In this document: in pieces, positions 48,722 to 58,555 of the stretch | How positions within the stretch are numbered: the stretch's first letter is position 1 | Layout: each line of letters begins with the position of its first letter | Origin: Desulfovibrio sp. | GTDB taxonomy: Bacteria > Desulfobacterota > Desulfovibrionia > Desulfovibrionales > Desulfovibrionaceae | Assembly: GCF_009712225.1 (NCBI RefSeq) | Contig: NZ_WASP01000019.1 | Coordinates: forward strand, 44,770 to 108,769 | Length of the DNA: 64,000 nt | Direction of reading: 5' to 3' | Position numbers and translations under genes: made by a program | The notes under the pieces: model-generated | What the model was told of the DNA's origin: nothing | Database searches by the model: none | What the model saw: only the letters and a program-made list of their open reading frames with translations

Positions 48722-49798
48722 ATGAGCAAATTGCGGATTGCCCAGTATGGTTGTGGAAAAATGTCAAAGTATTCGATGCGCTATGTATATGAGAAAGGCG
48801 CGGAAATCGTGGCAGCCTTTGATGTGAACCCGGCGGTAGTGGGCCACGATATCGGCTCTATCATTGGCGGCCCAGACCGGGGCGTGGTAGTGCAGCACGC
48901 GAGCGAGGCCGACAGGGTGCTTGCTGCCATCAAGCCCGATGCCTGCATCATCACCACCATGAGCCTGATGCGCGATATCGCCGAGGCCCTCATGGTCTGC
49001 GCCAGAAACGGCGTCAACGCCATTACCACCAATGAAGAAGCCATCTTTCCCATGAACTCATCACCCGCGCTCACCCGGCAGGTGGACGCCATGGCAAAGC
49101 AGACCGGCTGCACCATCTGCGGTTCGGGGTATCAGGATGTTTTCTGGGGCAATCTTATTGCCACTCTGGCTGGTGCCATGCACAGCATTACGCGCATCAA
49201 GGGCAACTCGAGCTACAATGTGGAAGACTACGGCATCGCACTGGCCAAAGCCCACGGCGCAGGCCTCGATCTGTCGGCATTTGAAAGGGAAATTGCCTCG
49301 GCAGACGCTATCTCGCCCGCAGAGCGGCAGCAGCTCATCGAAAAGGGCGAGTTTTTGCCCTCGTATATGTGGAACGTCAACGGCTGGCTGGCCGAACGGC
49401 TGGGTCTCACGGTAAAAAGTCAGGTGCAGAAGTGTGTGCCGCAAACCCACGGGGCCGAGCTGCGTTCTGAAACCCTGGGCATGACCATACCGGCCGGGCA
49501 TGCCACGGGCATGTCTGCCGTGGTCACCACTGAGACGGAAGAGGGCATAGTCATCGAGAGCGAGTGCGTGGGTAAGGTCTACGCCCCCGGCGAGGTTGAC
49601 CGTAACGACTGGACGCTCATGGGCGAACCAGACACTCAGGTCGTCATTTCACGGCCCGCCACGGTAGAGCTGACCTGCGCCACCATAGTCAACCGCATTC
49701 CTGACCTCATCAACGCCGCGCCCGGTTACGTGACCACCGATCTCATGCCGGTCAACAGCTACCGCGTCAAATCTCTTGACCATTACGTGAACAAGTAA
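48722..49798 (+). CDS. DapB-like NAD(P)-binding oxidoreductase (2,4-diaminopentanoate dehydrogenase / native amine dehydrogenase family)
   Basis: AGGAGG RBS. N-terminal Rossmann motif IAQYGCGKM. Overall length and the GSGYQDVFW region fit the DapB-like amine-dehydrogenase family. The functional call is tentative. Confidence 0.65.
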   Translation: MSKLRIAQYGCGKMSKYSMRYVYEKGAEIVAAFDVNPAVVGHDIGSIIGGPDRGVVVQHASEADRVLAAIKPDACIITTMSLMRDIAEALMVCARNGVNAITTNEEAIFPMNSSPALTRQVDAMAKQTGCTICGSGYQDVFWGNLIATLAGAMHSITRIKGNSSYNVEDYGIALAKAHGAGLDLSAFEREIASADAISPAERQQLIEKGEFLPSYMWNVNGWLAERLGLTVKSQVQKCVPQTHGAELRSETLGMTIPAGHATGMSAVVTTETEEGIVIESECVGKVYAPGEVDRNDWTLMGEPDTQVVISRPATVELTCATIVNRIPDLINAAPGYVTTDLMPVNSYRVKSLDHYVNK

Positions 49799-49833
49799 TT
49801 CATTCTTCCCCCCCAACCGCCATTGGCGGAGTT

Positions 49834-49877
49834 TCCGCCGCATGCAGCAACTGGCTGGTGCGGCGGATTTTATTTTT
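49834..49877 (+). terminator. Rho-independent terminator
   Basis: 9-bp stem tccgccgca/tgcggcgga followed by ttttattttt. Confidence 0.75.
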
Positions 49878-49883
49878 ATCTGC

Positions 49884-49911
49884 TTGACAATTTGTCGCGT
49901 GGGATTATGCT
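49884..49911 (+). promoter_or_regulatory. Sigma70-like promoter for the NifX/MinD-Fd cluster
   Basis: TTGACA (49884-49889), 16-nt spacer, TATGCT (49906-49911). Lies 30 nt upstream of the ATG at 49941. Confidence 0.55.
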
Positions 49912-49940
49912 CATTTGAGCAAAAACAAGGGAGCGAGCAG

Positions 49941-50291
49941 ATGAAAGTTGCCGTCTCAAGCGAAGGCCCGGGGCTGGAATCGCAGGTTGATCCGCGATTC
50001 GGCAGGGCTGGCGGATTTGTCATTGTGGATATGGAAACCATGCGGGCCGACTATGTGGATAACGGCGCGTCACAGGCTGCTGCTCAGGGGGCTGGCATCC
50101 AGACTGCCGAGCGTCTGGCCGGGCTGGGTGTGCAGGCTGTCATGAGCGGCTATGTGGGGCCCAAGGCTTTTATGGCGCTTAAGGCTGCAGGGCTGGACGT
50201 GTATCAGGACATGGACAACCGCAGCGTGGCAGATGCCGTGCGCTGCCTTGCGGATGGCTCGGTGAGCCCCGCCACTGCTCCCAACAAGTAG
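49941..50291 (+). CDS. NifX/NifB-C-terminal-like (dinitrogenase FeMo-cofactor-binding fold, MTH1175-like) small protein
   Basis: AAGGGAG RBS. MKVAVSSEG...DPRFGRAGGFVIVD is the family-typical N-terminus. Confidence 0.8.
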   Translation: MKVAVSSEGPGLESQVDPRFGRAGGFVIVDMETMRADYVDNGASQAAAQGAGIQTAERLAGLGVQAVMSGYVGPKAFMALKAAGLDVYQDMDNRSVADAVRCLADGSVSPATAPNK

Positions 50292-50297
50292 GTTCAT

Positions 50298-51203
50298 ATG
50301 CGCATTGTTATTGCCAGTGGCAAGGGCGGCGCGGGAAAAACCACGGTAACCGCCTGCCTTGCCTCACAGTGGACAGGCGACCTCATGCTGGCCGACGCCG
50401 ATGTGGAAGCGCCCAACCTGCATCTTTTGCTGCACCCAAGCCTTGCAGAGCCTGAAACGGTCTGCCTTGAAGTGCCGGAACTGCTGGCAGAAAGATGCAC
50501 TGGCTGTGGCGCTTGCCGCCCCATGTGTTCCTATGGCGCTATTGCCATGCTGGGCGCAAAGCCCATGTATTTTCAGGATATGTGTCACGGCTGCGGCGGC
50601 TGTTTTGCGGTGTGTCCGGAACAGGCGCTGCGCGTGGCACAGCGCGAGCTGGGCGCGTTGCTGCTGGGCACGGCCCGGGCTGGCGAACGAAGCGTGCCAT
50701 TTCTTATGGGGCGCACCCGTGTGGGTGAGGCCATGACCCCGCCGTTGCTGCGCGCGCAAGAGCGCAGGCTGGCGGCAGAGCTCATGGCCCACCCCGCGGA
50801 TGTACTTATGGATGCGCCACCCGGCGTGAGCTGCCCGGCCATGACCGCTGCCCGCAACGCCGATGCCGTGCTGCTGGTGGCGGAACCCACACCCTTTGGT
50901 CTGTACGATTTCAAGCTGGCCCATGCGGCTTTTGCACAGCTGGGGCGACCTGTTGCCTTGGTTATCAACCGCGTGGGCATGCAGGGCAATGCTGCGTGCG
51001 AGGAAGAGATGCGCGCCTGGTGCGCCGGGGCCAAACTGCCTGTTTTGGCAGAACTGCCCTTTGAGCGCGAGGCCGCCGAGGCCTATGCGCACGGCGTACC
51101 TCCCACAGAGGACCAGGGCGCCACTGGGCAGCAGTGGCGGCAGAGTTTTGCCGAGCTTGCGGCAAAGCTGCGGAATTTTGCGGAGGGTGCGCGCCATGCA
51201 TGA
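50298..51203 (+). CDS. MinD/ParA-superfamily P-loop ATPase with an inserted 2x[4Fe-4S] ferredoxin domain (paralog 1)
   Basis: Deviant Walker A SGKGGAGKTT. Cys motifs CTGCGACRPMC and CHGCGGCFAVCP. Confidence 0.85.
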   Translation: MRIVIASGKGGAGKTTVTACLASQWTGDLMLADADVEAPNLHLLLHPSLAEPETVCLEVPELLAERCTGCGACRPMCSYGAIAMLGAKPMYFQDMCHGCGGCFAVCPEQALRVAQRELGALLLGTARAGERSVPFLMGRTRVGEAMTPPLLRAQERRLAAELMAHPADVLMDAPPGVSCPAMTAARNADAVLLVAEPTPFGLYDFKLAHAAFAQLGRPVALVINRVGMQGNAACEEEMRAWCAGAKLPVLAELPFEREAAEAYAHGVPPTEDQGATGQQWRQSFAELAAKLRNFAEGARHA

Positions 51204-52107
51204 GATTGTAGTTGTTAGCGGCAAGGGCGGCACAGGAAAGACAACGGTTTGCGCCGCATTTGCCGCGCTGGCGCATGCACGTGGGCAAAAGGCCGTGCTC
51301 TGCGATCTGGATGTGGACGTGCCTGACATGCACATTCTGCTGAACCCGCAGATACAGCAGCGCGAGGCCTTCATATCGGGCAACACGGCCCGCATCAATC
51401 CTGATCTCTGCACCGCATGCGGACGTTGTGCCGAGTTGTGCCGCTTTGACGCGGTGCACCTTGCCGACGGCGTATACAGCATTGACGAATTGGGCTGCGA
51501 GGGCTGCGGTGTGTGCCACAAGCTATGCCCGGCGGGGGCCGTGGAATTTCCTGAGCGGCGCTGCGGTGAGTGGTACATGAGCGATACACGCCTTGGCCCC
51601 TTCGTGCATGCCCAGCTTGAACCGGGACAGGAAAATTCCGGTCGGCTCGTGTCGCAGATCAAGCGTCAGGCCCGCGAAAAGGCTGCCAGCCTGGGGGCAG
51701 ACCTTGTGCTCTGCGATGGTTCGCCCGGCGTAGGTTGCCCTGTTATCAGCTCTCTTTCCGGCGCGGCGCTGGCCGTGGCGGTGGTGGAACCCACCCCTTC
51801 GGGGCGGCACGACTTTGGCCGGGTGGCCGAGCTGTGCGCGCATTTTCGTATTCCCGTAACGGTACTCATCAACAAGGCCGACTTGAACGCGCAGGAAACA
51901 GCCCGTATCCACGCCATGATTGAAGAGGGGGGGCACCACCTGCTGGGCGAGCTGCCTTTCAGCTCACTGGTAACGCAGACCATGGTGCGGCGTCAGGCCC
52001 TTACGGAAGAAAATTCAGCCCTTGCCGAAATACTGGCCGCAGCCTGGGAGCGCGCGTGCGCCCTTGCTGCTCAGCCGGGGCGGCGGGGCGCAAAAAACAG
52101 TCTGTAA
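51196..52107 (+). CDS. MinD/ParA-superfamily P-loop ATPase with an inserted 2x[4Fe-4S] ferredoxin domain (paralog 2)
   Basis: The ATG at 51196 overlaps the upstream stop by 8 nt (ATGCATGA). SGKGGTGKTT; CTACGRCAELC; CEGCGVCHKLCP. Confidence 0.85.
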   Translation: MHEIVVVSGKGGTGKTTVCAAFAALAHARGQKAVLCDLDVDVPDMHILLNPQIQQREAFISGNTARINPDLCTACGRCAELCRFDAVHLADGVYSIDELGCEGCGVCHKLCPAGAVEFPERRCGEWYMSDTRLGPFVHAQLEPGQENSGRLVSQIKRQAREKAASLGADLVLCDGSPGVGCPVISSLSGAALAVAVVEPTPSGRHDFGRVAELCAHFRIPVTVLINKADLNAQETARIHAMIEEGGHHLLGELPFSSLVTQTMVRRQALTEENSALAEILAAAWERACALAAQPGRRGAKNSL

Positions 52108-52119
52108 AAGGAAAGCATC

Positions 52120-52497
52120 ATGAGCAAGACTATTCTGGCAATTCCTTCGCAAATGCCCGGCGGCCTGGATTCCGGCATGGGCATGCATTTTGGTCATTGC
52201 GATATTTACACCATTGTTGAGCTGGAAAACGGGCAGGTGGCTGGTCAATCCACCCTCGCCTCCATTCCTCATCAGCAGGGCGGCTGTCTTGCTCCGGTAC
52301 AGTACCTTGCCGCCCACGGTGTAAACGCGCTGTTGGCTGGCGGTATGGGCATGCGCCCCCTGATGGGTTTCAACCAGATGGGCATCAGCGTGTACTACGC
52401 TGGCAACCAGCCCACAGTGGGCATGGCCGTACAGGCTTTTTGCCAGGGCAAGCTGACAGAATTTACGCCCGACCAGACCTGCGGCGGCGGTCACTAG
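52120..52497 (+). CDS. NifX-like FeMo-cofactor-binding-fold protein with a Cys/His C-terminal tail
   Basis: MHFGHCDIYTIVELENG, LLAGGMGMRP, C-terminal TCGGGH. Confidence 0.8.
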   Translation: MSKTILAIPSQMPGGLDSGMGMHFGHCDIYTIVELENGQVAGQSTLASIPHQQGGCLAPVQYLAAHGVNALLAGGMGMRPLMGFNQMGISVYYAGNQPTVGMAVQAFCQGKLTEFTPDQTCGGGH

Positions 52498-52503
52498 GTC
52501 GCC

Positions 52504-52869
52504 ATGAAGCGCTCCATCTTGTTGCAGACGGGCAGACCGGCCGTTTTTGCCCCCTTTGTGCGGGAGCTCGAGCGGCAGGGCTGCACCGTAACCACGGTTG
52601 CAGATGCCGCAGCCTGCAAGGATTGCGTGCAGCGACAGGCCCCGCAGCTGGTGGTGGTTGACGCGCCCACGCACGGGCAGGCACGGCAGGATGTTATAGG
52701 CATCATGCGTGTAAACGCGCTGGTGCATACAGCGGTTGTTACTGACATGGCGGCTGATGCCTTTCATGACGCCATGGAGGGGCTTGGCATTCTGACCTCG
52801 CTGCCGCCCGCACCCGGGGCGGATGACGCACGCCGCCTGTTGCAACTGCTGAACGACGTGATGGCCTGA
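52504..52869 (+). CDS. Small hypothetical protein, possibly a degenerate receiver (REC)-like fold
   Basis: 121 aa, starting 6 nt after the upstream stop. The alternating pattern ILL...LVVVD...AVVTD resembles CheY strands, but the N-terminal acidic pair and the conserved Lys are not evident. Confidence 0.55.
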   Translation: MKRSILLQTGRPAVFAPFVRELERQGCTVTTVADAAACKDCVQRQAPQLVVVDAPTHGQARQDVIGIMRVNALVHTAVVTDMAADAFHDAMEGLGILTSLPPAPGADDARRLLQLLNDVMA

Positions 52870-53188
52870 GCGCTGGGCCACAGGCCCGGCAGCGCACAGG
52901 TTTTACATTGGCGCAGGCCCGTATTCACGCTGGGCCGCGCACCTTGGGCCACTGATACGCGTCCCGTACAGGCGCGATTGCCGGGCGGCCCGCGAAAACA
53001 TGGCCGGATCTGAAACAGGTTTACCCCTCCTGTTTCAGGTTCGGCCATGCCCGATCTGTTTTTGTTGCCATGCCGCACACCGCGAGGTGTCGCGCAATAT
53101 CCCCAATGCCGCATCAGCCGTGACTGCGCCCCTTGCGCATGCCAGTTCATTGGCTTATTCTCAAATAAAACCATATTGCTGGGAAATT

Positions 53189-53920
53189 ATGCCAAGACCT
53201 TGCCATTGCAGGCGCGTAAGCGCGCTGCCCAAAAACAGCTGTTTCAAACCCAACGGGGTTCCCCTGCACGAGCTTGAAGAAGTGGTGCTGTCGCTGGATG
53301 GCCTGGAGGCCTTGCGGCTGGCCGACTTTGAAGACCTGAACATGGATGAGGCCGCCGCCCGCATGGGTGTTTCGCGGCATACCTTTGGCAGGCTCTTGCG
53401 TCGCGCTCGTCGCAGTGTGGCGCAGGCCCTTGTGCTGGGGCAGGCCCTGCGCATTGAGGGCGGCGTGTGCGCGGTGGATGCCCCTGAGGGGCACGATGCA
53501 GGGGCAACTGCCAAGGGGGCAGAATCCGCAGCGGGCGACCTGCTGGTGGCTGTTCCCAGTCTGATGCCGGGTGGCCCTGAGGCTGCGCCCAATGCGCATT
53601 TTGGCAGATGCCAGGTCTATACGCTGGCCCGGGTGGAAAATGGAAAGATAACAGAGATGGGTGTGCAGCCCAACCCCATGCATCAGGGTGGCGACTGCGG
53701 CGGGCCGGTGCAGGCCCTCTTGCGGCTGGGGGTAAATACCCTGCTGGCTGGCGGCATGGGCATGCGCCCCTTGCAGGCTTTGCAGGCGGCGGGCATTGCC
53801 GTGTACTATAATGCCAGTCTGCCCACGGTGGCCGACTGTCTCAACGCCTTTGCCGCGGGCAGGCTTGTGCCTTTCGGCCCCGGGCATCTGTGCCAGGGCG
53901 GCTGCGCTTCCAAACGGTAG
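53189..53920 (+). CDS. DUF134 (UPF0251, putative DNA-binding) domain fused to a NifX-like domain
   Basis: Start re-set to the ATG at 53189. MPRPCHCRRV..FKPNGVPL..LEEVVLSLDGLEALRLAD...MGVSRHTFGRLL is DUF134-typical. C-terminal half has AHFGRCQVYTL, LLAGGMGMRP and a terminal CQGGC. Confidence 0.8.
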   Translation: MPRPCHCRRVSALPKNSCFKPNGVPLHELEEVVLSLDGLEALRLADFEDLNMDEAAARMGVSRHTFGRLLRRARRSVAQALVLGQALRIEGGVCAVDAPEGHDAGATAKGAESAAGDLLVAVPSLMPGGPEAAPNAHFGRCQVYTLARVENGKITEMGVQPNPMHQGGDCGGPVQALLRLGVNTLLAGGMGMRPLQALQAAGIAVYYNASLPTVADCLNAFAAGRLVPFGPGHLCQGGCASKR

Positions 53921-54015
53921 ACTCATGCAGGCCGCGGCAATGACCCGCAAGAGTCTACACGTTTAGAAAGCGCCTTGTTTGTAAGCCCGGCGTGCAACTC
54001 CACCGGGAACATTCG

Positions 54016-54792
54016 CTAGAATGCGTACAAAAAGCCCCCGCTCAGCGAGTACTTGCTGCTGTGCTCAACCATGGGGCTGTTACTGACCTCTTCACCCAGA
54101 AACAGAGCCTTGCCACTGGCAAAGGCGCTCCAGCTTTCCGAAAGGCCCACCCGCAGGGTAAGCTCTCCGTAAGGGGCAAGGGTTGCCTGAGGCGAGTAGT
54201 GGCTCAGCCCGCTGGCCTGAGCCTCGCTCTTGCTCACACCGTAGTAATAGTCGTTGTAATTCTCGTCGGTCCACTGCACTCCAAGCGTGGGAATAAGTGA
54301 CATGTTGGCAAAGCGGACTGGATAGGAATATGACGCAACTGCCATTACACCGTTATTCACACCCAGAGCATCGGTAGAAAGCGTGGCCGCAAGCATGCCC
54401 AGATCGGTGTGCAGCCGGTAGTTGATACCCACCATGGCCGATGCATACCGGTCATCAAGCTTTTTCATGGCCGAGCTGTCGCTCCACGAGGCGAAGAAAT
54501 TCTGCGGCAGATACGAAAGCTGCACGTTGAATTCGTGGTTTTCGTTTTTGAATACATGCACGCCGCCACTCAGCCCTCGCAGATACAGCCTGTCTCCCTC
54601 ATAACCCAGCAGGGGCAGGGCTGTTCCCAGCCGTTCCACTCCCCGGTATTCAGACGTTGAAACCGTGCCGCCAATGCCGAGGTCGAAGCCCCAGCGGTTG
54701 TCGGTGTTTTTGTTTTCTTCTGCCTGCACTGCAAACACAGACCCTATAAGAATGGTTACTGCTGCAATACACGACAGCACCTTTTGACGCAT
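54016..54792 (-). CDS. MipA/OmpV-family outer-membrane protein
   Basis: The ATG at 54792 follows GGAGGA. Signal peptide, then beta-strand-rich sequence (RWGFDLGIGG, ALPLLGYEGDRLYLRG) ending in aromatic YAF. Confidence 0.85.
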   Translation of the reverse strand: MRQKVLSCIAAVTILIGSVFAVQAEENKNTDNRWGFDLGIGGTVSTSEYRGVERLGTALPLLGYEGDRLYLRGLSGGVHVFKNENHEFNVQLSYLPQNFFASWSDSSAMKKLDDRYASAMVGINYRLHTDLGMLAATLSTDALGVNNGVMAVASYSYPVRFANMSLIPTLGVQWTDENYNDYYYGVSKSEAQASGLSHYSPQATLAPYGELTLRVGLSESWSAFASGKALFLGEEVSNSPMVEHSSKYSLSGGFLYAF

Positions 54793-54804
54793 GGTTCCTC
54801 CTGC

Positions 54805-54848
54805 GCAACAAAAATGTTGCACTTTCCATAGAAAATAGGTAACCGGTT
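54805..54848. promoter_or_regulatory. Candidate operator palindromes in the mipA/tetR divergent intergenic region
   Basis: GCAACA-aaaa-TGTTGC at 54805-54820. AACCGGTT at 54841-54848. Confidence 0.35.
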
Positions 54849-54908
54849 GATTACACGAAAGCCTAGCTCTAATCTTGGAGCCATGTCAAGCAGCAACAAG
54901 TACAGAGG

Positions 54909-55517
54909 ATGAACGCAATGGTTTCTGATCGTAAGAAAGTTTCAGCCCCACAGCAAAAGCGCAATGCTGCAGCAACGCGTAACCGTTTACTGCAAGCAGC
55001 AAGAAGGCTCTTTGCCGGAGCCAACTATGTCAGTGTTGGTATTCGAGAAATCGGTGCAGAAGCAGGAGTAAACCCGGCTTTGATCAGTCGCTATTTTGGC
55101 TCGAAACGGAACCTTTTTCTTGAGGTGGCATCCATACTCAATGAAGAGGGCAATGCTGCCCTGCCCGATGCTCCCCCCGCAGAAAGAACCAAGCTGGCCA
55201 TGAACAGTATTCTGTGCGACGGCGCGCACAGCGCGTGGGTGACGGATTTTCGCATCACGGCGCTTTCTGCGCTTGATCCCAATGTTTCGGATGTAATGAC
55301 GGCTACGTATGACAAGGTGCGTGAGCAGATCATGGGTGTGCTGTCGGACGAACAGGCGGCAACCCGTGCAGAGCTGATACTTGCGCAGCTTATGGGCGCC
55401 GCTCTGGTGGTAAACCTGCTGCGCGGCGACAAGTCGCCAAAGATTGATCTGGAATTTATGAAGCAGTTTTATGCCCGGCAGATGGAAGAGCTCTTTGCCG
55501 GCAGCGTGCAAGGCTAG
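54909..55517 (+). CDS. TetR/AcrR-family transcriptional regulator
   Basis: TRNRLLQAARRLFAGANYVSVGIREIGAEAGVNPALISRYFGSKRNLF helix-turn-helix. The ATG at 54918 has better RBS spacing than the one at 54909. Confidence 0.88.
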   Translation: MNAMVSDRKKVSAPQQKRNAAATRNRLLQAARRLFAGANYVSVGIREIGAEAGVNPALISRYFGSKRNLFLEVASILNEEGNAALPDAPPAERTKLAMNSILCDGAHSAWVTDFRITALSALDPNVSDVMTATYDKVREQIMGVLSDEQAATRAELILAQLMGAALVVNLLRGDKSPKIDLEFMKQFYARQMEELFAGSVQG

Positions 55518-57314: not shown

Positions 57315-57457
57315 CCGATGCCTCCTTTGAATCTGCGCTACATAACACAGCTTCGGCCAAACCCCAAGCGACTTTTTGAGGCTCTTCCCGCGAGTTTTTT
57401 CATAGACCGCCCTTGTCACCGCTGGTAGAATGGGACCGGAGGGGAAAGGAGCGTGCC

Positions 57458-58555
57458 ATGCGTGGATATGCCAGTCTGTATTTTTTCTGCGCCGTACTGA
57501 CGTTCGTTTCTCCTGCTGCGCCCAATGCGGCAGAAAACGCAGCAGAATACCGCGCGCCTGTTGCCGGGGCAAAGCTTGGGCCTGTTGCGCCTGTGCAGCC
57601 TGCCCCGCAAGCCCAGCCAGGCCAACAGGGCAACGCCGCCGCACAGGCGGCGGGGCAACCGTCTCAGGCAGGCGGTTTGGCTGCTGCCCAGAACCAGAAT
57701 GCCCCTTACACCGGCGGGCAAAATCCGCCGTCCGGCCAACCTTCGGCCCCCATGCAGCCCGGCACGGCAGGTGCGCCTGCGCCGTGGCCTTCCGGGGGCA
57801 TGATGCCCTATTCATCCATTGGCGGGCTGCCAGCGACGGCCCCACAGCCCGATGCTTCCGGTATGCCTGCTGCGGCCCAGGCTCCCGATACGCCAGCCGC
57901 ACCCGGCTATGACCCCGGTTACGCGCCGTACCCGCCTGCCCCATATCCCGCGAACCCGTATCCGGCGGGCCAGTACCCCGCTGCTCCATACCCTTCTGCA
58001 CCGTATTCAGGCGGGCAGGGGGGCGATGCCGTGTACGGCACAAGCCAGCTACAGGGCGAAAATTTCAACGACAGGGGCCTCGCTACCCAGTATCGTGACC
58101 CACAAACTGGCGATATTGTTACTTCTGTTGTTCCACCCAGCCCGCCAGAGCAGCAGAACTACGGTACCATCTTTGTGGCCCCCCAAATTTACCCCGATGG
58201 CAACAACTGGGGCGGCAACCCCTATGGCCCCATGCCCAGACCCGGCCAACCCTACATGCAGCCCCCGGTCATGTGGCAGCCGCCCCCGCAGTATGTCAGA
58301 CCAGCCGACCCTGACCGGCATCGGCATTCTGACCGCAGGCATGATGACCGCCGACATGACGACAGGTATGATGGCCGTTACAATGGCACGCCACCGCCTC
58401 CGCCTCCGAACCAGGGCCAGTATCCGGGCCAGTACCCGGGGCAGCATGATTTCCGCGGCGGAGACAGGTACGACTCTCGGCAGGGCCCGCAGGGCAATTC
58501 AACGTATGACCAGCGCGATGCAGACAGAAGCCGCGATGGAAGGGAGAGGCGGTAA
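57458..58555 (+). CDS. Exported proline/glutamine/tyrosine-rich protein with a His/Asp/Arg-rich C-terminus
   Basis: The ATG at 57458 follows GGAAAGGAG. Hydrophobic N-terminus MRGYASLYFFCAVLTFVSPAAPNA. PYP-type repeats. C-terminal DRHRHSDRRHDDRRHDDRYDGRY. Confidence 0.65.
   Translation: MRGYASLYFFCAVLTFVSPAAPNAAENAAEYRAPVAGAKLGPVAPVQPAPQAQPGQQGNAAAQAAGQPSQAGGLAAAQNQNAPYTGGQNPPSGQPSAPMQPGTAGAPAPWPSGGMMPYSSIGGLPATAPQPDASGMPAAAQAPDTPAAPGYDPGYAPYPPAPYPANPYPAGQYPAAPYPSAPYSGGQGGDAVYGTSQLQGENFNDRGLATQYRDPQTGDIVTSVVPPSPPEQQNYGTIFVAPQIYPDGNNWGGNPYGPMPRPGQPYMQPPVMWQPPPQYVRPADPDRHRHSDRRHDDRRHDDRYDGRYNGTPPPPPPNQGQYPGQYPGQHDFRGGDRYDSRQGPQGNSTYDQRDADRSRDGRERR

Follow-up and report, generated by a model that had tools for sequence, protein, structure and literature searches.

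The orange protein (ORP) system is among the most widespread gene sets confined to anaerobes; it has carried its name since 2011, and a crystal structure has been available since 2009. To our knowledge, no job has been assigned to it. Here, we describe a cluster of six genes (g1 to g6, in their order along the forward strand; Table 1) from Desulfovibrio sp., which lies on contig NZ_WASP01000019.1 within a 64,000-nucleotide stretch of DNA that was analyzed as a whole and is referred to below as the window. By homology, these genes are identified as an orp (orange protein) gene cluster, and a palindrome in front of the first gene is the predicted binding site of a DUF134 regulator encoded by the last. 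An earlier note on this DNA had regarded the cluster as a dedicated system for the handling and sensing of a metallocluster; this general idea fits both the literature and the gene neighborhoods, but the note had not recognized the named orp cluster. It had also allowed for a defined role already present in the literature. The cluster has indeed been described and named, and its complex and Fe-S clusters are known, but its cellular role was still considered unclear in 2021.

The ORP complex of D. vulgaris Hildenborough includes Orp3 and Orp4, each with two [4Fe-4S] ferredoxin motifs, as well as Orp5, Orp8, which is the orange protein itself, and Orp9, also called MrpORP (PMC6345978). MrpORP is composed of an Mrp/NBP35 domain and a dimeric 'Di-Nase' domain, which binds a [3Fe-4S] cluster via CxHFGHCE and CDH motifs (PMC6345978). 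Orp3, Orp4, and Orp8 co-purify, with Fe-S clusters received from MrpORP, and Orp8 homologues hold a non-covalent [S2MoS2CuS2MoS2] cluster (PMC6345978); in the form [S2MoS2CuS2MoS2]3-, this cluster is carried by purified D. gigas ORP, according to work cited in PMC6345978. Orp3, Orp4, Orp8, and Orp9 have been purified and partly characterized (PMC6345978, PMC8359166). In D. vulgaris, the orp genes are organized as two divergent sigma-54 operons, which OrpR activates when the redox potential is low; the genes are expressed only under such conditions, and their role has been called 'still unclear' (PMC8359166). More generally, the IPR003731 domain binds anionic metal-sulfide species, and its cladogram sets the NifX and NafY clades apart from the IssA clade, which holds MTH1175 (PMC5524996).

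Identity and conservation of the six genes

The layout given in the earlier note, namely six plus-strand genes with their coordinates, the 8-nt overlap between g2 and g3, and the 319-nt gap before g6, was confirmed, and profile searches upheld its NifX-like (PF02579), Fer4-MinD (CbiA/ParA plus Fer4), and DUF134 (PF02001) assignments. In particular, the Pfam family PF02579 (Nitro_FeMo-Co) is matched by g1 (E-value 1.4e-20), g4 (1.5e-16), and residues 134-222 of g6 (1.6e-15; hereafter g6-C), all of which exceed the gathering score of 26.3 bits. The g1 protein aligns without gaps to D. gigas ORP (PDB 2WFB; E-value 2.1e-36; residues 2-116 to 6-120), and 65 of the 115 residues (57%) are identical. 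MTH1175 is matched by g1 (5.6e-15) and also by g4. The NCBIfam model of MrpORP, NF041136, is matched by g4 at model positions 275-365 (2.9e-14, 53 bits) and by g6-C (1.2e-9, 38 bits); because the Mrp/NBP35 P-loop domain is missing and both scores are far under the family cut-off of 450 bits, neither g4 nor g6 is itself a MrpORP. The g4 and g6-C domains are close paralogues (E-value 1e-31), and both retain the Cys/His motifs of the family: HFGHC, GGC, and a C-terminal CGGGH in g4, and HFGRC, GGDC, and CQGGC in g6-C. The motif CQGGC, with which the earlier note had g6 end, is present but lies four residues short of the C-terminus. The g4 motifs are conserved and match the CxHFGHCE/CDH motifs of the [3Fe-4S]-binding domain (PMC6345978), and g4 is the free form of the MrpORP C-terminal domain.

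The g2 and g3 proteins, which are 30-31% identical, match CbiA, ParA, and several Fer4 families of Pfam. Each contains two CxxCxxCxxxC motifs (at residues 67 and 96 in g2) that mark an inserted 2x[4Fe-4S] ferredoxin domain; a PDB search found no solved structure that carries this insert. Between 97% and 100% of the 82 g3-type and 75 g2-type orthologues retain the signature Lys of GKGGxGKT (K9/K10), the P-loop Lys, the switch I Asp, the eight ferredoxin Cys, the Walker B Asp, and a Cys in switch II. The switch II Cys (Cys179 in g2, Cys181 in g3) is embedded in D-x-x-P-G-x-x-C-P and aligns inside switch II of MinD, seven residues past the Walker B Asp, a spacing that equals that from Asp125 to Cys132 in A. 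vinelandii NifH. These features point to a nucleotide-controlled site at the interface of a putative g2/g3 heterodimer.

Because g1 is an ORP orthologue, g2 and g3 have the architecture of Orp3 and Orp4, and g4 and g6-C are Di-Nase domains, homology identifies the cluster as an orp cluster. The remaining protein, g5, has no Pfam match, though its relatives weakly match Response_reg. Its AlphaFold2 (AF2) model (mean predicted local distance difference test score, pLDDT, 93.8) has a CheY fold, with a Foldseek template-modeling (TM) score of 0.80 and a root-mean-square deviation of 2.6 Å to Spo0F. In the phospho-acceptor pocket, read against canonical receiver motifs, Asp53 is invariant, but the acidic pair of strand beta1 and the conserved Lys are missing. 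Since the modeled CheY fold lacks the acidic pair and the Lys, g5 is classified as a predicted pseudo-receiver, which agrees with the degenerate receiver pattern that had been noticed earlier. The family signature is FH(D/E)..EGLG(I/V)L..LP..P. A Cys-rich protein that binds [2Fe-2S] is the reported homologue of Orp5; the idea that g5 might be a Cys-ligated [2Fe-2S] protein was rejected because its family has no conserved Cys.

Homologous loci were collected from the best 80 matches, with one genome scanned per species. They are spread over Desulfobacterota, Planctomycetota, Spirochaetota, Synergistota, Chloroflexota, Bacillota, Atribacterota, Elusimicrobiota, Ignavibacteria, Calditrichota, Acidobacteriota, and Verrucomicrobiota, together with one Thermoplasmata archaeon. 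Neighborhoods were counted in the 58 loci that have 3 kb or more of flank on both sides, and the genes proved to be co-conserved, as the earlier note had expected: the second ATPase paralogue (ATPa) is present in 57 of the 58 loci and at least one NifX-like gene in all 58, with both the ORP type and the Di-Nase type in 49. Mrp-like genes occur in 18 loci, in five of them fused to a NifX-like domain, and DUF134 occurs in 15. Homologues of g5 adjoin the ATPase pair in 16 loci, in either order; the order g5-like, ATPa, ATPb, found in several of them, agrees with the transcription order DVU2105-DVU2103 listed in PMC4641369.

Pfam annotation of 150 flanking or interspersed open reading frames (ORFs) from 75 loci yielded 80 families, of which 25 were listed. 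The leaders are NifU_N (13), Mrp/NUBPL (8), further Nitro_FeMo-Co proteins (7), DUF5320 (5), and methyltransferases (5); no nitrogenase, Mo-transport, hydrogenase, or Min family is among the 25 listed. In Solidesulfovibrio, Mrp and a NifU_N protein lie directly upstream of ORP. Because NifU_N and Mrp/NUBPL head the census and adjoin ORP in Solidesulfovibrio, the strongest genomic link of orp clusters is to Fe-S assembly and trafficking.

Within Desulfovibrionaceae, the six-gene order is identical in metagenomic relatives (loci L081-83, 89% identity) and in Desulfovibrio sp. 3_1_syn3 (L084). A D. desulfuricans-like contig (L087) has an equal layout in which no g5-like gene was called. In other members of the family, DUF134 stands at the start of the operon, either fused to an ORP-type domain (L085, and L001 from Mailhella) or free (L086); in L085, a gene for an 84-aa Zn-ribbon protein adjoins the g5 homologue. 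L086 (positions 1-20576) is a Pseudodesulfovibrio-like marine contig in which a Tn3-family transposase on one side and a Tn7-like TnsA/TnsB/TniB/TniQ set on the other enclose the whole orp operon. Genes for a copper-type HMA/P-type ATPase and rubrerythrin are next to it, so that the cluster here has metal-resistance genes as neighbors. Since transposon genes flank this operon, orp clusters may be able to travel on mobile elements.

The predicted DUF134 regulator and operator

Residues 3-92 of g6 match DUF134 (PF02001; 2.3e-22, 79.8 bits, cut-off 27), and residues 40-75 match Sigma70_r4_2 (1.1e-5), a helix-turn-helix of the sigma-70 region-4 type. DUF134 proteins share the conserved motif MPRP...VSRxTFGR, and the predicted recognition helix of g6 reads VSR-H64-TFGR. 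Fusions of DUF134 to a NifX-like domain occur in 60 of the best 150 representative clusters, 38 with an ORP-type and 22 with a Di-Nase-type domain. The N-terminal residues C5, C7, and C18 of g6 were considered as a metal site and rejected, as they are not conserved across DUF134. In the literature searched, DUF134, UPF0251, COG1342, and PF02001 receive passing mentions only.

Inspection of the regions upstream of DUF134 genes in the 80 loci revealed a 20-bp palindrome with the consensus TTATGAGCATATGCTCATAA. A symmetrized position weight matrix (PWM) was built from 17 of these sites and scanned over 1.23 Mb, which gave 37 sites of at least 20 bits versus 0.05 in shuffled sequence. Twenty of the 37 sites had not been used for training; among them are four copies, from different phyla, that are perfect or nearly so. 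The motif is carried by 25 of the 80 loci. The palindrome is located directly upstream of DUF134 genes, ORP-type genes, and the ATPase pair, and often overlaps the spacer and -10 box of a TTGACA-type promoter. It also precedes genes for DUF5320 (MPR.DGTGP...), ARMT1-like/DUF89, and FmdB-type Zn-ribbon proteins; these genes, whose positions are given in Table 1, would be additional members of the predicted regulon. This palindrome, together with the regulator-operator pairing that it predicts, is the new element of the present analysis.

The copy in the window has a core, TGCTCATTTGAGCA, that overlaps both the -10 box and the expected transcription start of the promoter-like site in front of g1; it is the sole perfect core match in the window. 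The whole site, TTATGCTCATTTGAGCAAAA, scores 15.2 bits and is the only PWM match of at least 8 bits in the 64 kb. Of the targets that the earlier note had proposed for g6, the one in the g5-g6 gap (52870-53188) contains no operator copy; the predicted operator is at 49905-49924. The same position is occupied in six Desulfovibrionaceae species; copies recur in L081-83, L084, L085, L087, and L001, with one mismatch in L087 and the variant TGCTCAAAAGAGCA in L001. The promoter-like site in front of g1 matches 10 of 12 consensus positions, and its position is likewise kept in L081, L084, L085, L087, and L001. Since the palindrome spans the -10 box and the expected start site, an mRNA 5' hairpin is an unlikely explanation for it.

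The site in the window follows the general motif, except that the inner two bases are exchanged in each half-site (TGAGCA..TGCTCA to TGCTCA..TGAGCA). The exchanged operator co-occurs with His in the VSRxTFGR motif of DUF134 in six of six loci, versus none of 24 non-His proteins, which comprise the 23 DUF134 proteins of the other loci and that of the Pseudodesulfovibrio locus L086, which has a general-type operator. These 24 proteins carry Gln, Pro, Ala, or Ser at the position of His64. His is also found there in four more Desulfovibrionaceae DUF134 fusion fragments.

Another regulator near the cluster, a TetR-family protein (54909-55517), was considered as the factor that binds the shared operator. 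It was rejected because its orthologue, found only in L081-83 and L087, is absent from the operator-bearing loci L084, L085, and L001. Upstream of the TetR gene, an inverted repeat, TAGCTCTAATCTTGGAGCCA (54864-54883), is probably its autoregulatory operator and is a perfect AGCTCT-N6-AGAGCT in L081. Its half-sites resemble those of the orp operator, but the spacing differs.

From these comparisons, we infer that DUF134 is the transcription factor of orp operons and that it most likely acts as a repressor. The sensing function that the earlier note had ascribed to the DUF134-NifX fusion thus gains comparative support from the operator palindrome and the His covariation. Put more broadly, and tentatively, for we judge it to fall a little short of an even chance, DUF134 proteins would be dedicated transcription factors of orp-type metallocluster operons in anaerobic bacteria and some archaea. 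They would bind TTATGAGCATATGCTCATAA over the core promoter; the residue after Ser-Arg (His64 in g6) would set the two inner base pairs (AG versus CT), the fused NifX-like domain would act as the sensor, and the motif would define the regulon. If so, this would be the first use of a NifX-type cofactor-carrier fold as the ligand-binding module of a one-component regulator, and a regulon of ORP, the ATPase pair, Di-Nase, DUF5320, ARMT1-like, and Zn-ribbon proteins would delimit the pathway. Moreover, if His64 sets specificity, a His64Gln variant of g6 would shift its preference towards TGAGCATATGCTCA. The operator motif and the covariation of the recognition helix may therefore offer a route to reading the regulon, and hence the pathway, from genomes.

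Possible roles of the complex

We propose, with confidence that is evenly balanced, that the cluster encodes an ATP-driven complex for the handling of metal-sulfur clusters, which is repressed by a cluster-sensing DUF134 fusion. In this model, g2 and g3 would form an ATP-dependent heterodimer of the NifH/MinD/Mrp kind, with Cys179 of g2 and Cys181 of g3 opposed at a nucleotide-controlled interface and with low-potential electrons supplied by the ferredoxin inserts. The NifX-like proteins g1, which has no Cys ligands, and g4, which has Cys/His ligands, would dock to the heterodimer while carrying anionic metal-sulfur species, either Fe-S or a Mo/Cu sulfide as in purified ORP. Under strongly reducing conditions, such a complex would assemble a metal-sulfur cluster, reduce it, or pass it on, and the pseudo-receiver g5 may serve as an adaptor of the ATPase pair. 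Transcription would start from the sigma-70-type promoter and be repressed by a g6 dimer whose DUF134 helix-turn-helix sits on the palindrome that overlaps the -10 box; dimerization and the sensing of the load of the same cluster or cofactor would fall to the Di-Nase domain of g6.

Several points weigh against these proposals. Within Desulfovibrionaceae, the covariation of operator and His amounts to one or two evolutionary events. Of the 25 loci that carry the motif, 8 have no DUF134 gene in the approximately 20 kb examined per locus, and the PWM scan found no full operator copy at the promoter-like site of g6 itself (53133-53161). The equivalence to Orp3, Orp4, Orp5, and Orp7 is drawn from domain architecture and published descriptions, not from alignment. 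Each ATPase subunit contributes one invariant Cys to the putative interface, alone too few for a [4Fe-4S] cluster, so that extra ligands would be needed from elsewhere, for example, from the Cys/His tails of the Di-Nase proteins. Adventitious formation in cells rich in sulfide could account for the Mo/Cu cluster of ORP. The sole published phenotype is a defect in cell morphology, which its authors read as a role in cell division. Finally, all support from this organism consists of sequences and models.

The cell-division reading of that phenotype can be extended to the locus: the MinD-like ATPases and their ORP partners would place the septum or a polar structure in anaerobes without MinCDE, and the metal centers would provide a redox response. 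We consider this unlikely, although it accounts for several observations. The solved folds nearest to the AF2 model of g3 (pLDDT 92.7) are MinD, FleN, and FlhG, followed by ApbC, Cfd1, NifH, and ATPase-type HypB. Published work reports morphological defects upon loss of orp expression as well as polar localization of MrpORP, and TadZ, one of the fold matches of g5, has a pseudo-receiver domain joined to a MinD-like ATPase. However, no MinC/MinE-like or divisome gene is found among the 25 listed of the 80 neighbor families, where Fe-S scaffold and carrier genes dominate, and the invariant eight ferredoxin Cys and switch II Cys are absent from MinD. The MinD models TIGR01968 and TIGR01969 score 35-65 bits against cut-offs above 200, which is no family-level match. 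The C-terminus of g3 is modeled as a low-confidence tail with no obvious amphipathic membrane helix. Moreover, a morphology defect can be secondary to failed maturation of metalloproteins.

A second alternative takes the ATPase pair as an ATP-coupled low-potential electron donor ('activator') for a reductase, in the manner of NifH, BchL, and CfbC, with the NifX-like proteins as adaptors instead of cluster carriers. NifH, BchL, and Fe proteins of methylthio-alkane reductase are among the fold matches, and each subunit has two ferredoxin clusters. The switch II Cys occupies the position of NifH Cys132, and the published expression of orp only at very low redox potential would suit such a donor. 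The [4Fe-4S] cluster between the NifH subunits is held by two Cys per subunit, Cys97 and Cys132 (A. vinelandii numbering), and Fer4_NifH scored 21.9 bits against a cut-off of 25. Among the 82 and 75 orthologues, however, an equivalent of Cys97 is not conserved in both paralogues, and the 25 listed families include no conserved catalytic partner of the NifDK/BchNB type. We regard an electron donor to a reductase as quite unlikely.

It is very unlikely that the genes serve the handling or detoxification of thiomolybdate, thiotungstate, or copper in a sulfidic cytoplasm, with ORP sequestering spontaneously formed Mo-S-Cu species that the ATPases load or unload. This explanation draws on the [S2MoS2CuS2MoS2]3- cluster of D. 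gigas ORP (as cited in PMC6345978), of which g1 is an orthologue, and on the copper-type HMA/P-type ATPase genes beside the cluster in L086. Those copper genes adjoin a single, transposon-flanked locus, however, and the cluster is spread across non-sulfidogenic phyla; no Mo/W transport or molybdenum cofactor (Moco) genes are among the 25 listed families. That the genes are accessory to a nitrogenase, or to a system like it, encoded elsewhere in the genome has next to no likelihood, even though PF02579 is common to NifX, NafY, and NifB: nif families are absent from the ORFs of at least 250 aa in the window, as the earlier note had observed, and from the 25 listed neighbor families, the orthologue of g1 is a characterized non-nif protein, and g1 and g4 match MTH1175 of the IssA clade, apart from NifX and NafY (PMC5524996).

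Surroundings of the locus and comparison with known systems

The features of the locus are collected in Table 1. The terminator-promoter pair that the earlier note had placed upstream of g1 (49834-49911) is real as sequence. Its hairpin is likely the intrinsic terminator of the upstream dehydrogenase gene and the 5' boundary of the unit. The long hairpin between g5 and g6 is probably a terminator or an RNA-stability element of the g1-g5 transcript. In three sequences compared, its loop GGTTTACCCC is kept in L081 and L087 while the stem sequences differ; the role of the hairpin may go beyond termination, for instance, as an RNA or DNA element to which a protein binds. The loop was also considered as a dispersed repeat, which was rejected, as its other copies within the window form no hairpin. 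An Rfam search of 49500-54300 with E-values up to 1 gave no match, and hence no riboswitch or known RNA.

Table 1. Features of the orp locus in the window and, in the last five rows, predicted regulon members in other loci (coordinates of the respective locus)
Feature	Position	Strand	Description
g1	49941-50291	+	116 aa, contains DPRFGRAGGFVIVD; orange protein (ORP/Orp8 orthologue), single NifX-like domain without Cys ligands
g2	50298-51203	+	301 aa, SGKGGAGKTT; MinD/Mrp/NifH-class ATPase ('ATPa', Orp3/Orp4 type)
g3	51196-52107	+	303 aa, SGKGGTGKTT; paralogous ATPase ('ATPb'); start overlaps g2 by 8 nt
g4	52120-52497	+	125 aa, C-terminal CGGGH; stand-alone 'Di-Nase' NifX-like protein
g5	52504-52869	+	121 aa; predicted pseudo-receiver (CheY fold)
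g6	53189-53920	+	243 aa, preceded by a 319-nt gap; DUF134 helix-turn-helix fused to a Di-Nase domain
Stem-loop followed by U-rich tract	49834-49867	+	-33.5 kcal/mol, z -4.67 versus shuffles; AUUUUAUUUUUAU directly after
Sigma-70-type promoter-like site	49884-49911	+	TTGACA (49884-49889), 16 nt, TATGCT (49906-49911)
Predicted DUF134 operator	49905-49924		TTATGCTCATTTGAGCAAAA; perfect palindrome core TGCTCATTTGAGCA at 49908-49921
Long hairpin in the g5-g6 gap	52999-53049	+	-45.1 kcal/mol, z -6.2; loop GGTTTACCCC
Promoter-like site for g6 alone	53133-53161	+	TTGCGC, 17 nt, TATTCT; read from sequence; identical in L081
Predicted regulon member, L009	8169-8477		
Predicted regulon member, L020	3632-3988	-	
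Predicted regulon member, L050	5371-5931		
Predicted regulon member, L057	3927-4499		
Predicted regulon member, L055	8787-9056		

The cluster is surrounded by housekeeping genes (cbi/cob methylases, yidC-jag-mnmE, mnmG, thrS-infC, pheST, tkt, pgk, purM, and aroA), and its direct flanks encode an Ord-like dehydrogenase, MipA, and TetR; no additional paralogue of g1-g6 is present anywhere in the window. The upstream gene (48722-49798) encodes a protein distantly related to 2,4-diaminopentanoate dehydrogenase (DAP_DH_C 8.7e-9; NCBIfam Ord 112 bits, cut-off 400) and is syntenic with the orp operon in L081-83, with a terminator between them. Between g6 and the TetR gene lies a gene for a MipA/OmpV-family outer-membrane protein (54016-54822, minus strand), which is missing from the otherwise syntenic L081-83 and is, by this comparison, a predicted lineage-specific insertion or loss. 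Two minus-strand ORFs, 50364-51662 (432 aa) and 52015-52881 (288 aa), face g2-g3 and g4-g5, respectively. Their GC content at third codon positions equals that of the sense genes, and a naive gene caller prefers them over the real genes; such shadow frames, which share the wobble position, are usual in a genome of 60% GC. Farther downstream, a plus-strand ORF of 380 aa (57413-58555), rich in Pro/Ala/Tyr/Gln repeats and with a tail of RHDDR repeats, has no Pfam match; its position beside purM is kept in L081, where a 373-aa gene likewise has no Pfam match. The host seems to belong to a gut-associated lineage of Desulfovibrio; this group is of medical interest because it produces sulfide.

The locus can be set against several known systems. 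MinD, FlhG, and FleN are the closest solved folds for g3, and TadZ resembles the cluster in having a receiver-type partner, as g5 would be. Unlike any of these, g2 and g3 have the ferredoxin insert and the switch II Cys, no MinC/MinE partners, and no evident membrane-targeting helix. With NifH and NifX, NafY, or the C-terminal domain of NifB, the cluster shares the combination of a dimeric ATPase that has a deviant Walker A motif and a switch II Cys with an IPR003731 carrier domain for anionic clusters; in contrast to NifH, the [4Fe-4S] clusters of g2 and g3 sit in the inserted ferredoxin domain instead of bridging the dimer. IssA, the thioferrate storage protein of Pyrococcus furiosus, and MTH1175 share with g1 and g4 the IPR003731 domain outside nitrogen fixation. 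However, the cationic, Gly-rich C-terminal tail of IssA is missing in g1 and g4, and IssA has not been reported with an ATPase pair. The D. gigas orange protein (2WFB) is like g1 from end to end but was studied in isolation, without operon partners, and MrpORP (NF041136) has in common with g4 and g6-C its C-terminal Di-Nase domain and the Cys/His motifs.

The closest system as a whole is the pair of D. vulgaris operons orp1 and orp2 (DVU2103-DVU2109), which encode Orp3, Orp4, Orp5, Orp8, Orp9, and OrpR. Both systems have an ORP orthologue, paired ATPases with two [4Fe-4S] motifs, and a Di-Nase domain, and in both the genes are clustered in an anaerobe-specific setting. They differ in that the window has one sigma-70-type operon and a separately promoted g6 in place of two divergent sigma-54 operons. 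The sigma-54 -24/-12 consensus TGGCAC-N5-TTGCW is absent from the window, the OrpR palindrome GGGCGYRTTTTGCGCCC has chance-level matches only, far from the cluster, and no OrpR gene flanks it. They differ also in that no Mrp/NBP35 gene, and thus no Mrp-like MrpORP/Orp9, is present in the 64 kb, the Di-Nase domain being either free (g4) or fused to DUF134 (g6). The copy in the window thus shows that the ORP system can do without the sigma-54/OrpR/MrpORP layout of the model organism. Universal parts of the system are two ATPases with an invariant switch II Cys and two kinds of NifX-like carrier, to which Fe-S scaffold and carrier genes are the commonest extra neighbors.

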